Assembly: GCF_003334385.1 (NCBI RefSeq)
Contig: NZ_QOWN01000110.1
From: Escherichia coli
GTDB taxonomy: Bacteria; Pseudomonadota; Gammaproteobacteria; Enterobacterales; Enterobacteriaceae
DNA length: 1,762 bases
Strand: one strand, 5' to 3'
This document shows positions 1 to 1,762 of this stretch, piece by piece. The first letter of the stretch is position 1, and each line of letters opens with the position of its first letter. The notes under the pieces were generated by a model. It had not been told where the DNA came from, searched no databases, and worked only from the letters and a program-made list of their open reading frames with translations. The translations under genes were made by a program, and so were the position numbers.

Positions 1-546
1 GCCCTGGGGATAACGGCAAAACAGATTGCTGATGCCACAGGAAAGAAAAACATGGTGTCGCACTGGTTCAGTGCCAGCCAGTGGCAGCTACCGGACGAAA
101 GCGATTATCTGAAATTACAGGCGCTGTTTGCCCGGGTGGCAGAAGATAAGCATCAGCGCGGAGAACTGGAAAAGCCACATCACCAACTGGTCAGCACATA
201 CAGTGAACTGAACCGGCAGTATACGGAACTGCAGAGTGAATATAAGCATCTGCGGCGGTATTTTGGTGTGACGGTGCAGGTGCCGTACACCGATGTGTGG
301 ACGCATAAACCGGTGCAGTACTATCCCGGGAAACATCCGTGCGAAAAACCGGCAGAAATGCTGCAGCAGATAATCAGCGCGAGCAGTCGTCCGGGTGACC
401 TGGTTGCAGATTTCTTCATGGGGTCAGGTTCGACAGTCAAAGCAGCGATAGCGCTGGGACGTCGTGCAACTGGCGTTGAGCTGGAGACTGAGCGTTTTGA
501 GCAGACGGTCAGGGAAGTTCAGAATTTAGTCAGTCAGAACGGATGA
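1..546 (+). CDS. DNA methyltransferase, beta-class N6-adenine/N4-cytosine family (N6_N4_Mtase-like), C-terminal portion; 5' end probably lies upstream of the window
   Basis: Frame 1 is open from base 1 to the TGA at 544-546, so the ATG at 52 may be an internal Met. The translation carries HPCEKPAEMLQQIISASSRPGDLVADFFMGSGSTVKAAIALGRRATGVELETERFEQ, which fits the HPxxKP ... GD-V-D-F-GSG(S/T)T ... LGR ... G-E C-terminal motif block (AdoMet-binding motif I, FxGxG type) of beta-class amino-methyltransferases. No DPPY motif IV is present in the 182 codons visible, consistent with it lying upstream. GC about 53% by hand count. Confidence 0.8.
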   Translation, partial: ALGITAKQIADATGKKNMVSHWFSASQWQLPDESDYLKLQALFARVAEDKHQRGELEKPHHQLVSTYSELNRQYTELQSEYKHLRRYFGVTVQVPYTDVWTHKPVQYYPGKHPCEKPAEMLQQIISASSRPGDLVADFFMGSGSTVKAAIALGRRATGVELETERFEQTVREVQNLVSQNG

Positions 547-586: not shown

Positions 587-662
587 GGCCCTTTAGCTCA
601 GTGGTGAGAGCGAGCGACTCATAATCGCCAGGTCGCTGGTTCAAATCCAGCAAGGGCCACCA
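587..662 (+). tRNA. ileZ: tRNA-Ile2 (anticodon CAU, presumably lysidine-modified, decoding AUA); ileX/ileZ-like
   Basis: Cloverleaf folded by hand: acceptor GGCCCTT (587-593) / AAGGGCC (652-658); D-stem GCTC/GAGC; anticodon stem 613-617 / 625-629 with loop CTCATAA (anticodon CAT at 621-623); T-stem GCTGG/CCAGC with loop TTCAAAT; discriminator A; encoded CCA at 660-662. The sequence is very close to E. coli ileX as I recall it. The symbol ileZ is the name used for phage-borne copies; Ile2 versus Met identity rests on that similarity, not on the anticodon alone. Confidence 0.85.
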
Positions 663-671
663 TATCACATA

Positions 672-748
672 CCGCCATTAGCTCATCGGGATAGAGCGCC
701 AGCCTTCGAAGCTGGCTGCGCGGGGTTCGAGTCCTCGATGGCGGTCCA
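672..748 (+). tRNA. tRNA-Arg, anticodon read as UCG (decoding CGA, possibly CGG)
   Basis: Cloverleaf folded by hand: acceptor CCGCCAT (672-678) / ATGGCGG (738-744), all 7 bp Watson-Crick; D-stem GCTC/GAGC with a 9-nt D-loop; anticodon stem CCAGC (699-703) / GCTGG (711-715), loop CTTCGAA with U33 and A37, anticodon TCG at 706-708; 5-nt variable loop; T-stem CGGGG/CCTCG with loop TTCGAGT; discriminator T; encoded CCA at 746-748. Unusual C1-G72 first pair. Confidence 0.8.
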
Positions 749-804
749 TTATCTGCATTATGCGTTGTTGGTTCTGATGAGTGAATCATTGTCTTTTGAG
801 CAAC

Positions 805-826
805 AGGCTATCATATAAGATAGCCT
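805..826 (+). other. Perfect 8-bp hairpin AGGCTATC-ATATAA-GATAGCCT downstream of the tRNA pair; possible weak terminator or RNA processing element
   Basis: Inverted repeat 805-812 / 819-826 with a 6-nt loop. The following sequence is only moderately T-rich (CAGACTTCCTTGTTTATTCTC), so a terminator role is uncertain. Confidence 0.2.
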
Positions 827-904
827 CAGACTTCCTTGTTTATTCTCGCCGGATGCTTCGTAGATATTTGCAGGCATCTGTATGCAGGGGTATTATTGCG
901 GCAT

Positions 905-1026
905 ATATCATCCGGAAAAATAAAAACTACATGCTGATCCGGAGATGATAGTTACAAGTCCTCCCGGATCCCGCATATTTACTATATTTTATAGATAATT
1001 GTTCTTGTTAATATGGAGATGGATAA
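905..1026 (+). promoter_or_regulatory. AT-rich upstream region of the lipoprotein gene with TCCGGA-type repeats, candidate promoter/operator, and Shine-Dalgarno
   Basis: TCCGGA at 911-916 and 939-944. An imperfect inverted repeat GATCCGGAG (937-945) / CTCCCGGATC (961-970) surrounds a 15-nt spacer. Several -10-like hexamers follow (TATATT 984-989, GATAAT 994-999), but no convincing -35/-10 pair at canonical spacing was found. GGAG at 1015-1018 is 8 nt upstream of the ATG at 1027. Confidence 0.3.
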
Positions 1027-1455
1027 ATGTATTGCCGTGCTGTACCAGTTCTTGTTTTGATATTAGCCAGTCTGACAACTGGCTGCACAAAAGATGTATC
1101 GACAAATAATTATGATGCTTCTCTGTATCACTCAGATAAATTAATAAAGTCGCAAAATTTGAGCTCATCGGAACGTACCCCTGATGCCAGTGAAGAAATC
1201 AGGCAGTATGCCATTCAGGTCAGGAAAGCCATAGAAGAACAGTTAAAGGATGCGAGTAAGTATTCAGGAAAAGAGTGTTCACTGAGAATGTATATGGCCC
1301 CGAATGGTCTTCTGCTACAGGTTAAAAGAGAAAGCGGTGATCCCGATTTATGTCGTGAAGCGATGAATGCAGTAAAGAATGCTGATATACCATCACCACC
1401 GTCTTCAGGAGTATATAAAGCATTTAGAAATGGCGTGCTGGATTTTAAACTCTGA
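1027..1455 (+). CDS. Predicted lipoprotein with a TolA C-terminal domain (TolA domain III)-like fold; moron-type accessory gene
   Basis: 142-aa ORF with an SD-like GGAG 8 nt upstream. The N-terminus MYCRAVPVLVLILASLTTGC has a basic n-region, a hydrophobic core and a lipobox-like TTGC, giving Cys20 as the predicted lipidated residue; Thr at +2 implies no inner-membrane retention signal. Residues ~55-142 (EEIRQYAIQVRKAIEEQLKDASKYSGKECSLRMYMAPNGLLLQVKRESGDPDLCREAMNAVKNADIPSPPSSGVYKAFRNGVLDFKL) align by eye with the E. coli TolA C-terminus as I remember it (YAGQIKSAIE..DASSYAGKTCTLR..APDGMLL.IKPEGGDPALC..A..AAK.AKIPKPPS..VY.VFKN..LDFK), roughly half identical, including both cysteines at the same 25-residue spacing. 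GC about 41% by hand count. Confidence 0.85.
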   Translation: MYCRAVPVLVLILASLTTGCTKDVSTNNYDASLYHSDKLIKSQNLSSSERTPDASEEIRQYAIQVRKAIEEQLKDASKYSGKECSLRMYMAPNGLLLQVKRESGDPDLCREAMNAVKNADIPSPPSSGVYKAFRNGVLDFKL

Positions 1456-1490
1456 CAGGGGGAGAAGATTTTCTCCTGTCCTGATGATTT
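1454..1490 (+). terminator. Candidate intrinsic terminator immediately after the lipoprotein gene
   Basis: Hairpin overlapping the stop codon: GACA (1454-1457) and GGAGAA (1461-1466) pair with TTCTCC (1471-1476) and TGTC (1477-1480), with a GGG bulge and a GATT loop. It is followed by CCTGATGATTTTGGGG; the T-run is short and 6 nt from the stem, so this is weak. Confidence 0.35.
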
Positions 1491-1548
1491 TGGGGCGCTG
1501 GAAAGATATTGTGCTGTGAAGTGTTAAATTCCTCACAATTCAGTAAGT

Positions 1549-1564
1549 TGACAGTTGCCTGTCA
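1549..1564. repeat. Perfect palindrome TGACAG-TTGC-CTGTCA (6-4-6), overlapping a consensus -35-like TTGACA (1548-1553)
   Basis: Direct reading: 1549-1554 TGACAG is the reverse complement of 1559-1564 CTGTCA. The same TGACAG / CTGTC arms form the outer stem of the hairpin at 1453-1480. No matching -10 hexamer was found at 16-18 bp spacing from the TTGACA. Confidence 0.5.
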
Positions 1565-1602
1565 GACTGAGCATTTGTTAAAAAAATTTCGCATGGTGAA
1601 TC

Positions 1603-1618
1603 CCCCTGTGCGGAGGGG
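1603..1618 (+). repeat. GC-rich hairpin motif copy 1 (CCCCTGTGCGGAGGGG)
   Basis: 14 of 16 positions identical to copy 2 at 1743-1758. Forms an imperfect stem CCCCT/AGGGG. Confidence 0.45.
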
Positions 1619-1740
1619 CGACTGGTGAACGGTATGATCTCTTTGATGATCGTAAGCGAGAATATGCGGGTTTAGTGTCACCGGGCTGAACTCACCGGGA
1701 GGCACCCGGCACCATGCAATGGCACATAGCGCCACTCTCC

Positions 1741-1762
1741 AGCCCCTCTCCGGAGGGGCTTT
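1741..1762 (+). terminator. GC-rich hairpin motif copy 2 (AGCCCCTC-TCCG-GAGGGGCT), followed by TTT at the window edge; candidate intrinsic terminator
   Basis: Perfect 8-bp GC-rich stem with a 4-nt loop, followed by T residues that run off the window. A full T-tract cannot be confirmed. Confidence 0.4.

Follow-up and report, generated by a model that had tools for sequence, protein, structure and literature searches.

The idea that phage tRNAs lying beside virulence cargo serve the translation of that cargo has often been repeated for Stx phages. The locus analyzed here, a stretch of 1,762 nucleotides from an Escherichia coli prophage (contig NZ_QOWN01000110.1; hereafter the window), brings this idea into question: an isoleucine and an arginine tRNA gene precede a small AT-rich lipoprotein gene, and the arginine anticodon does not match the codons of this cargo. 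For what are these two tRNA genes kept, and how did the mismatch arise? An earlier note, made from the sequence alone, had proposed that the isoleucine tRNA supports translation of the cargo, while the arginine tRNA serves other phage genes. The features on which our answer rests are as follows.

1..546, + strand: 3′ part of a late-region DNA methyltransferase gene (full CDS of 352 aa), an ORF whose start lies 5′ of the window
587..662, + strand: ileZ, predicted tRNA-Ile2, anticodon CAU, CCA encoded (ARAGORN; Rfam, 72.5 bits; PGAP, tRNA-Ile)
672..748, + strand: argN, predicted tRNA-Arg, anticodon UCG, CCA encoded, C1:G72, U73 (ARAGORN; Rfam, 55.1 bits)
762..769, + strand: first 8 nt of argO (tRNA-Arg, UCU), GCGTTGTT, from alignment to four loci with intact argO
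770..1532, + strand: AT-rich cargo cassette of 0.76 kb, 40% GC (Stx2a_1447 is matched up to 769 and again from 1533)
805..826, + strand: 8-bp hairpin (inverted repeat) just 3′ of the argO stub (fold of −13 kcal/mol, z = −3.3)
1027..1455, + strand: gene for a predicted 142-aa lipoprotein with signal peptide, lipobox (LTTG/C20), linker of about 30 aa and TolA domain III (Pfam and PDB matches)
1562..1762, + strand: STnc100 (PasD-related) sRNA gene of prophages, its 3′ end lying beyond the window (Rfam RF02076)

Two tRNA genes of a phage backbone

ARAGORN detected exactly two tRNAs in the window, at 587-662 (CAT) and 672-748 (TCG), and Rfam recovered both. The two anticodons are those that the earlier note had read, and its count of two tRNAs holds as well, no third being found in the window by ARAGORN or by Rfam even at E ≤ 1. 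The first gene, a cloverleaf with anticodon CAU, is identical (76/76) to the annotated ileZ of Stx2a_1447. Among K-12 tRNAs it matches ileY at 70 of 76 positions and ileX at 68 of 76 versus 52 of 77 for metT and metU, that is, 89.5-92% identity to ileX/ileY against 67.5% to metT. Its acceptor stem (GGCCCTT/AAGGGCC) contains the pairs C4:G69 and C5:G68, as do ileX and ileY, whereas metT and metU align with T4:A69 and A5:T68. C4:G69 and C5:G68 are the identity pairs of E. coli TilS (EcTilS), and tRNA-Met carries U4:A69 and A5:U68 (PMC11947777; PMC1635315). Because these TilS pairs are present, the 587-662 tRNA is shown, as far as identity rules can tell, to be ileZ, a tRNA-Ile2 and not a tRNA-Met, which bears out the earlier description of an ileX-like gene. 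From the same rules we expect lysidinylation and charging with Ile: host TilS would turn the CAU anticodon into LAU, and AUA would then be decoded. Compared with the chromosomal ileX and ileY, ileZ shares CAU, C3:G70, C4:G69, C5:G68, A73 and the anticodon loop, but it carries 6-8 substitutions (D loop, anticodon stem, T loop and the 6:67 pair) and is phage-borne, in a late operon. An elongator tRNA-Met, which would bring no gain for AUA decoding, is very improbable. A CAU anticodon would read AUG if left unmodified, ARAGORN labels the gene tRNA-Met, and PGAP gives that name to a near-identical copy (2 nt different) in strain HS13-1; yet ARAGORN names tRNAs from the anticodon alone, calling CAT Met by default, PGAP names the 587-662 copy itself tRNA-Ile, and both the EcTilS pairs and the K-12 comparison side with ileX/ileY.

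The second gene is identical to the annotated argN of Stx2a_1447 at 74 of 77 positions, so that the UCG reading was no error. The two copies differ within their D and T loops and at one pair of the T stem, where G:C has changed to G:U. Its predicted MFE structure is a cloverleaf. In our numbering, read from the sequence, it carries A20 and C35, which are identity elements for ArgRS; its discriminator, U73, is atypical. The UCG anticodon is absent from the host E. coli tRNA set and would be expected to decode CGA and, by wobble, CGG.

Both genes lie in the Q-dependent late region of a stx-negative, Stx-phage-like lambdoid prophage integrated at ompW. The gene order is Q, methylase, ileZ, argN, cargo, STnc100 sRNA, a sialate-esterase-type gene and lysis genes; in annotated contexts the array likewise lies 3′ of Q and the methylase and 5′ of the cargo slot and the lysis genes. 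The methyltransferase is annotated as WP_021565040.1 in NZ_CP060083. The STnc100 gene covers positions 1-197 of the 206-position model and scores 164.8 bits (gathering threshold, 47), and its homologous stretch lies downstream of stx2B in Stx2a_1447; the family is treated in bioRxiv 10.64898/2026.05.13.724894. Stx2 phages of the 933W/Sakai Sp5 type, for which Stx2a_1447 is our example, share with the prophage Q, a small ORF, the methylase, the tRNAs, the cargo slot, an STnc100-type sRNA, the esterase and the lysis genes, as well as the 9-nt spacer between ileZ and argN. They differ in that argO and stx2AB occupy the slot in which the window has the lipoprotein cassette, and the right flank of the window is only 83% identical to theirs. 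These contexts agree with the earlier statement that lambdoid and Stx phages carry an ileZ-argN-argO-type cluster before their cargo, and with its remark that a non-toxin lipoprotein fills the cargo slot here. Full-text literature searches for ileZ/argN/argO and for the tRNA genes of 933W returned no match; following GenBank annotations, we take the array to be the ileZ–argN–argO array of Stx phages.

Megablast places positions 1-769, methylase and tRNAs together, in one contiguous block that is 94-95% identical to Stx2a phages, and the conserved order of the module is methylase–ileZ–argN–argO. Both tRNA genes are thus, by position and conservation, members of a methylase–tRNA backbone and not of the cargo. 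A search of 5426 complete E. coli genomes placed ileZ-like genes at 7527 sites (3057 genomes), argO-like genes at 6223 sites (2369 genomes) and argN-like genes at 1514 sites (1061 genomes). Among the prophages sampled, identical ileZ genes precede unrelated cargo or none, and ileZ stays at 100% identity even where the flanking backbone falls to 80-84%; gene conversion among prophages that share a host, instead of selection, could account for this invariance.

We compared array state and cargo at about 10 loci. Stx2a_1447 has ileZ, argN and argO, and the four argN loci sampled that lack the cassette all keep argO (4/4), with other cargo or none. phiP27 (upstream of stx2e), mEp460 (mEp460_ev081) and the AH25 prophage also have a reduced array in the same slot, but with the opposite member lost: ileZ is followed by a degenerate argN pseudogene and an intact argO(UCU). 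Unlike the ileZ and argN of the window, this ileZ and argO pair does match ATA and AGA/AGG. In mEp460 and AH25 a paralogue of the window lipoprotein lies downstream of the array, though beyond the STnc100-like element and with a second gene for a TolA-III lipoprotein behind it. The paralogue, 94 of 142 aa identical, stands behind ileZ and Arg-UCU in loci L006 and L007.

The argO remnant and the cargo cassette

In place of a complete three-tRNA array, the window holds a reduced variant that keeps the argN–argO spacer and 8 nt of argO. Alignments with the four intact-argO loci show that the rest of argO past 769 is missing or unrecognisable, and megablast similarity to Stx phages stops at the same position. 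Beyond the stub, the anticodon arm of argO finds a collinear 13/16 match. Its local and global scores are, however, equalled by 3-6% of shuffles (p about 0.03-0.06) and by other segments of the window, and the similarity falls short of significance. The cassette occurs in 123 of the 5426 genomes, and 122 of these carry the left junction (749-1026) over its full length at >98% identity; spacing across the junction is identical in 23/23 IMG/VR contigs. Among the 123 genomes and 23 contigs we found no intermediate with both the cassette and an intact argO. Because 122 genomes and 23 contigs have the same junction in common, these alignments point to one recombination event behind it. argO may have been cut by this exchange or may have decayed earlier.

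The cassette is moron-like in its deviant GC content (40%, with 41% in the lipoprotein gene and 53% in the methylase flank) and in its absence from Stx2 phages with homologous flanks. Regulatory signals around it did not exceed chance. The hairpin at 805..826 has no T-run behind it and the terminator scan was negative, no terminator-like site was found around the cassette, and the hairpin after the lipoprotein stop codon has a z of −1.5. One promoter-like site (9/12) lies at 867-896, but shuffled sequences give promoter and terminator counts just as high. Over 619-948, the ORFs on the minus strand and the small ones overlap the tRNAs or are unsupported, and we regard them as mechanical.

The lipobox of the lipoprotein was read directly from the sequence. 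Residues 52-140 match Pfam TolA_C (PF06519) with 8.2e-23 over model positions 7-96 of 96, and the structures of E. coli TolA domain III (1S62, 3QDP and 1TOL) match with 1.6e-25, 45 residues being identical over the full 88-residue domain (51%) and both Cys kept. RefSeq names the protein ‘cell envelope integrity protein TolA’. This name does not hold: the NCBIfam TolA model is matched only at positions 297-386 of 387, with a score of 103 that falls below the NF007065 cut-off of 213, and the three-domain architecture is reduced to domain III. The cargo is not TolA because it lacks the N-terminal TM anchor and the long helical domain II and has a lipoprotein signal peptide instead. It belongs to PHROG 5772, a family without assigned function.

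The cargo is probably a lipoprotein of the outer membrane with a copy of TolA domain III exposed to the periplasm. Such a protein might be a putative decoy for the ligands of this domain, namely TolB/Pal, the translocation domains of group A colicins and g3p of filamentous phages. The same prophage encodes a lipoprotein-anchored TonB C-terminal domain. We put forward only tentatively, and consider rather doubtful, a joint scheme in which the TolA-III lipoprotein, as an outer-membrane-tethered periplasmic decoy, would intercept Tol/Ton ligands together with the TonB-domain lipoprotein, and in which the tRNA array would be a recombination hinge losing members regardless of cargo. If the decoy function were true, the lysogen would be shielded from colicins or Tol/Ton-dependent phages, or the outer membrane would be loosened at lysis. 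PADLOC gave no match for either lipoprotein, and literature searches for a prophage TolA-III lipoprotein found nothing relevant. As a small AT-rich envelope gene between conserved late modules, present or absent among close relatives and with a lipoprotein product, the cargo resembles lambdoid morons such as Bor/Iss, Lom and the Cor-type exclusion lipoproteins, but its fold and its presumed target, Tol-Pal, differ from theirs.

Codon demand and the origin of the mismatch

The codon counts made by hand in the earlier note proved right. In the lipoprotein CDS (1027-1455), Ile is encoded by ATT (1), ATC (1) and ATA (4), and Arg by CGT (3), AGA (3) and AGG (2), with no CGA and no CGG; argN is indeed unmatched to the cargo. 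The methylase part (1-546) has no CGA, 4 CGG, ATA at 3 of 5 Ile codons and 1 AGG. By binomial tests, the 4/6 ATA of the cargo exceeds the prophage mean with p = 0.009 and the host level with p = 1.7e-4; for its 5/8 AGR the two values are 0.008 and 1.7e-6. Few codons underlie these values, and AT-richness is simply a property of the gene.

Following the suggestion of a prophage-wide tabulation, we compared 56 prophage CDS with 40 host CDS (codons per 1000; Fisher p).

AGG: prophage 5.66, host 0.68, p = 2e-14, 8.4-fold
AGA: prophage 6.91, host 1.05, p = 1e-15, 6.6-fold
CGG: prophage 13.59, host 3.68, p = 2e-19, 3.7-fold
ATA: prophage 8.08, host 3.45, p = 5e-7, 2.3-fold
CGA: prophage 5.22, host 3.38, p = 0.025, a weak enrichment of 1.5-fold

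Over the prophage as a whole, no codons are more over-represented than AGA and AGG, and the top five of the 61 codons by enrichment include AGG, AGA, CGG and ATA, ACA tying with ATA. Since these codons are among the most enriched prophage-wide, the tRNAs fit the phage as a whole. The prophage contains 110 ATA, 71 CGA and 185 CGG codons, 111 of the latter in structural genes; Arg-UCG fits these CGG-rich structural genes, which makes plausible the earlier view that it serves other phage genes. Across four phages with three different tRNA sets, rare-codon loads are nearly equal (AGR 11-13 and CGR 14-20 per 1000 codons). Because the load is alike whatever the set, the tRNA complement does not appear tuned to demand and might be nearly neutral, although with n = 4 this is only a hint.

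The most serious alternative is that the Ile2 tRNA has been kept beside the lipoprotein gene because this AT-rich cargo needs it, as proposed for stx. The ATA richness of the cargo speaks for such a supply, as does stx2A, which in the same slot has ATA at 15 of 20 Ile codons, 6 AGA and 2 AGG; ileZ and the cargo are moreover adjacent and probably co-transcribed. However, the cargo holds only 4 of the 110 ATA codons of the prophage, ileZ is the same before unrelated cargo or none, and it is the methylase backbone in 1-769, not the cassette, to which the tRNA is tied. What is missing is just the Arg tRNA that would suit the cargo, yet the haplotype is found in 123 genomes. We therefore consider this explanation unlikely, and the earlier proposal that the Ile2 tRNA supports this particular cargo was not supported.

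Less probable still is that the tRNAs are spare parts against attack on host tRNAs by anticodon nucleases or tRNase colicins rather than codon supplements. Colicin D, a tRNase colicin, cuts tRNA-Arg. The unusual acceptor end of argN (C1:G72, U73), its anticodon foreign to the host, the failure of rare-codon load to follow the tRNA set across the four phages and the other envelope-protection-type morons in the same prophage would all suit this reading. On the contrary, the codons to which the anticodons correspond are those that the phage over-represents most, as expected under the supplement model but not under this one, and ileZ would not escape a nuclease that cuts host tRNA because its anticodon arm is nearly identical to that of ileY. 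That the genes are integration scars (att remnants) is hardly credible: prophages commonly integrate at host tRNA genes, and tRNA matches near prophage sRNAs have been read as such scars (bioRxiv 10.64898/2026.05.13.724894), but both genes are full length with CCA and occupy the middle of the late operon, with 17 kb between them and the integrase and ompW junction. Phage genome records (phiP27, mEp460 and Stx2 phages) contain them too, and they differ from every K-12 tRNA compared.

The array is thus the known rare-codon cluster of Shiga-toxin-type prophages with its third tRNA lost, and no new mechanism is involved. We regard as the probable explanation overall that ileZ and argN are known backbone tRNAs, that argO and the former cargo were swapped for the TolA-III cassette, and that the mismatch is a by-product of this history. 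ileZ and argN would be backbone genes inherited together with the methylase; in the late, lytic phase they would be transcribed jointly into a tRNA precursor, and they would be likely to top up host-scarce decoders for the whole phage. The ancestral array would have had argO as its third member, whose UCU anticodon reads AGA/AGG. A single recombination would then have replaced all but 8 nt of argO, together with the earlier cargo, by the 0.76-kb AT-rich cassette, and the tRNA suited to the AGA/AGG codons of the cargo would thereby be precisely the one lost. Anticodon and cargo are mismatched because argO(UCU) is absent, ending 8 nt in at the cassette junction; given modular exchange at a conserved tRNA array, the mismatch would therefore be a by-product. 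We rejected a special role of Arg-UCG as its cause, AGA and AGG being the codons that the prophage over-represents most and argO being the tRNA that is missing.

Implications for phage tRNA arrays

The tRNA arrangement is ordinary and the cargo mildly interesting. Two automatic labels are corrected here, tRNA-Met from ARAGORN and ‘TolA’ from RefSeq, a practical gain that is modest, and the TolA-III lipoprotein family PHROG 5772, found in a toxin slot, is flagged as a candidate envelope decoy. The locus is also a natural counter-example to the idea that phage tRNAs serve cargo translation. The same array occurs with different cargo or with none, argN has been lost in some lineages and argO in others, and the array of the window is missing the very tRNA for which its cargo and the whole genome would have most use, although the haplotype is widespread. 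Because the array loses members across lineages while the haplotype remains widespread, our results argue for tRNA supplementation at the level of the phage backbone, under weak selection, and for the array as a junction at which modules are exchanged.

Locus and identity of the two tRNAs

The chromosomes of several E. coli strains, including G1/2 and NCTC9112, are 100% identical to all 1,762 bases of the window. In these strains the matching segment falls among the late genes of a lambdoid prophage integrated beside ompW. This late region runs from antiterminator Q through a 65-aa ORF and a DNA methyltransferase to two tRNAs, followed by a gene annotated 'tolA', a SASA-family esterase, and holin and lysis genes. 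Besides one non-coding stretch, the window includes the following features.

Features of the window
1-546, methylase, last 182 codons (ORF)
587-662, tRNA 1, anticodon CAT (ARAGORN, Rfam)
672-748, tRNA 2, anticodon TCG (ARAGORN, Rfam)
1027-1455, lipoprotein CDS, 142 codons
1562-1762, + strand, cut by the window end, STnc100-family (RF02076) prophage sRNA gene (Rfam, 164.8 bits)

The STnc100 family is related to PasD and linked to sialate-esterase genes (preprint, bioRxiv 10.64898/2026.05.13.724894); such an element is also found downstream of stx2B in Stx2 phages.

ARAGORN detected exactly two tRNAs, with anticodons CAT and TCG, and Rfam confirmed both; neither ARAGORN nor Rfam at E<=1 found a third in the window. 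tRNA 1 is identical to the annotated ileZ of a Stx2a phage (76/76) and matches K-12 ileY and ileX at 70 and 68 of 76 positions, versus 52 of 77 for each of metT and metU. It has the pairs C4:G69 and C5:G68, by which E. coli TilS separates tRNA-Ile2 from tRNA-Met (PMC11947777; also PMC1635315), whereas Met tRNAs have T4:A69 and A5:T68. PGAP (RefSeq) also names it tRNA-Ile. These observations bear out the earlier note, which had described an ileX-like tRNA with a CAU anticodon, and we rejected the 'Met' label given by ARAGORN, which names such tRNAs by anticodon alone. By its sequence tRNA 1 is tRNA-Ile2, predicted to be lysidinylated and charged with Ile. A TTGCAG-N18-TATTAT element lies directly 5′ of ileZ (547-586), with a predicted start a few bases from the mature 5′ end; it scored under the promoter-scan threshold.

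ileZ is 100% identical between the window and three other backbones (the AH25 prophage and loci L017 and L019) whose flanks are only 80-84% identical, which suggests purifying selection or otherwise strong conservation, or else gene conversion between prophages that share a host. A copy in strain HS13-1 (locus L016, 1918-1993) differs by 2 nt, at position 32 of the anticodon loop and position 43 of the anticodon stem, and is called tRNA-Met by PGAP while copies with an identical acceptor elsewhere are called tRNA-Ile; phage tRNAs of this kind are therefore labelled inconsistently.

tRNA 2 matches the annotated argN of Stx2 phages at 74 of 77 positions and folds as a cloverleaf. Its anticodon is UCG, as in argN of the phage trio, in which argO has UCU, and the earlier reading of Arg-UCG was therefore free of error. 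The first pair is C1:G72 and the discriminator U73, an unusual combination since tRNA-Arg of E. coli usually has A73 or G73; a G51:U63 wobble replaces the G:C pair of the Stx2a copy. E. coli is not known to have a UCG isoacceptor of its own; it decodes CGA with an inosine-containing ICG tRNA and CGG with a minor CCG tRNA. The UCG tRNA is thus expected to read CGA and CGG through wobble.

Reciprocal loss of argN and argO

ileZ, argN and the stx/moron slot are already known from Stx and lambdoid phages; the window shares them but has a two-member array without argO, and a TolA-III lipoprotein as cargo. Over 1-769 the window matches many Stx2a phages as a single unbroken stretch at 94-95% identity; in those phages argO (UCU) comes next in the array, followed by stx2AB. 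The similarity ends 8 nt into argO (GCGTTGTT, 762-769) and restarts at ~1533, just 5′ of the sRNA. Between these breakpoints lies a 0.76-kb cassette of 40% GC containing the lipoprotein gene, and a search by alignment for an argO remnant past the 8-nt stub gave no statistical support. Directly 3′ of the stub, at 805-826, a stable 8-bp hairpin (AGGCTATC/GATAGCCT, -13 kcal/mol, z=-3.3) that is not followed by a T-tract may be a processing signal, a terminator remnant or a recombination scar.

Of 5,426 complete genomes of E. coli, 123 have the cassette. Because 122 of these 123 carry the left junction at full length and >98% identity, and all 23 cassette-bearing IMG/VR viral contigs have the same CAT and TCG pair at the same spacing, the junction points to a single recombination event, which later spread. 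argN loci without the cassette retained argO in 4/4 sampled, and their cargo is TerB-family plus DUF3927, IraM, or none.

About 770 genomes and phage mEp460_ev081 have a paralogue of the lipoprotein (94/142 residues identical) on another backbone, where ileZ is kept, argN is visibly degenerate and argO is intact; phiP27 has the same ileZ and argO form upstream of stx2e. Since argN decayed there and argO was lost here, comparison of these sequences indicates that the array loses different members in different lineages, and that the lineage of the window lost argO, the predicted reader of its cargo's AGA and AGG codons. In AH25 (L006, 3933-4907) and mEp460_ev081 (L007), two tandem TolA-III lipoproteins of 142 and 124 aa, both with lipoboxes, sit between an STnc100-like element and the holin gene.

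Codon demand across the prophage

Codon tabulation reproduced the hand counts of the earlier note: ATA accounts for 4 of 6 Ile codons and AGA or AGG for 5 of 8 Arg codons in the lipoprotein gene, and neither CDS of the window contains CGA. Four CGG codons in the methylase fragment, also an expected target of the UCG anticodon, had escaped mention. The cargo bias exceeds prophage and host averages, with small numbers (binomial p about 0.009 for ATA and 0.008 for AGR versus the prophage), and goes with the low GC (41%) of the gene. We compared 56 annotated CDS of the NCTC9112 prophage copy (13,610 codons) with 40 flanking host CDS (13,320 codons).

Codon frequencies per 1000 in prophage and host, ratio, and Fisher p
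AGG: prophage 5.66, host 0.68; 8.4x; 2e-14
AGA: prophage 6.91, host 1.05; 6.6x; 1e-15
CGG: prophage 13.59, host 3.68; 3.7x; 2e-19
ATA: prophage 8.08, host 3.45; 2.3x; 5e-7
CGA: prophage 5.22, host 3.38; 1.5x; 0.025

AGG, AGA, CGG and ATA are among the top five phage/host ratios, with ACA level with ATA; the ancestral trio therefore decodes the phage's most host-atypical codons. ATA and CGA, on whose enrichment the earlier proposal depended, are both enriched prophage-wide, and its suggestion that Arg-UCG serves other phage genes is supported by the CGG excess and by the location of 111 of 185 CGG codons within structural genes. The same tabulation shows that ileZ does not serve the cargo in particular, which holds 4 of the 110 prophage ATA codons. 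The mismatch between Arg tRNA and cargo is real and is explained by module shuffling, argO having been lost at the cassette junction. Among four phages that differ in their tRNAs (three sets in all), loads are nearly equal (AGR 11-13 and CGR 14-20 per 1000), which hints that the retained set is not finely tuned to demand. We infer that the tRNAs would be co-transcribed in the late operon, TilS modifying tRNA 1 and the UCG tRNA decoding CGG, to the benefit of late-gene translation.

A TolA-III lipoprotein and its companions

The 142-aa cargo product has a signal peptide whose lipobox, as seen in the sequence, is LTTG↓C20, followed by Thr at +2. The residue after the lipobox Cys guides lipoprotein sorting (the +2 rule), and this Thr suggests an outer-membrane destination. 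A linker of some 30 residues, low in complexity, leads to a complete TolA domain III (Pfam PF06519 at 8e-23; PDB 1S62 at 1.6e-25), 51% identical to E. coli TolA residues 333-420, both cysteines included. Unlike TolA, the lipoprotein has neither a membrane anchor nor helical domain II, and it falls under the NF007065 equivalog cut-off; RefSeq therefore over-calls it as 'cell envelope integrity protein TolA'. No function is assigned to PHROG 5772, the phage family to which it belongs, PADLOC returned no match, and we found no earlier description of this cargo in searchable literature. Our best guess is a periplasmic decoy that would bind partners of TolA-III, namely TolB/Pal, colicin translocation domains or g3p, because soluble periplasmic TolA-III confers tolerance to colicins and Ff phages and a leaky envelope.

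Some 8 kb 3′ of the window, after the lysis genes (L009, another part of the prophage, 29338-29664), lies a gene for a second energy-transducer domain anchored as a lipoprotein, a 108-aa 'TonB family protein' with the lipobox LVMG↓C. That one prophage encodes both TolA-III and TonB-CTD lipoproteins suggests a pair of decoys, for import by the Tol and Ton pathways. Elsewhere (L009 13351-16211 and, in a further part, L010 16939-18102), it encodes QueH, an epoxyqueuosine reductase (tRNA-modification enzyme), a Dcm-type methylase and NgoMIV-family restriction pair, an OmpC porin among tail genes, and Lom; strain G1/2 has hokD and other genes in place of the restriction-modification pair. The TolA-III cargo family and its TonB-domain companion are the only parts of this locus that might repay experiments.
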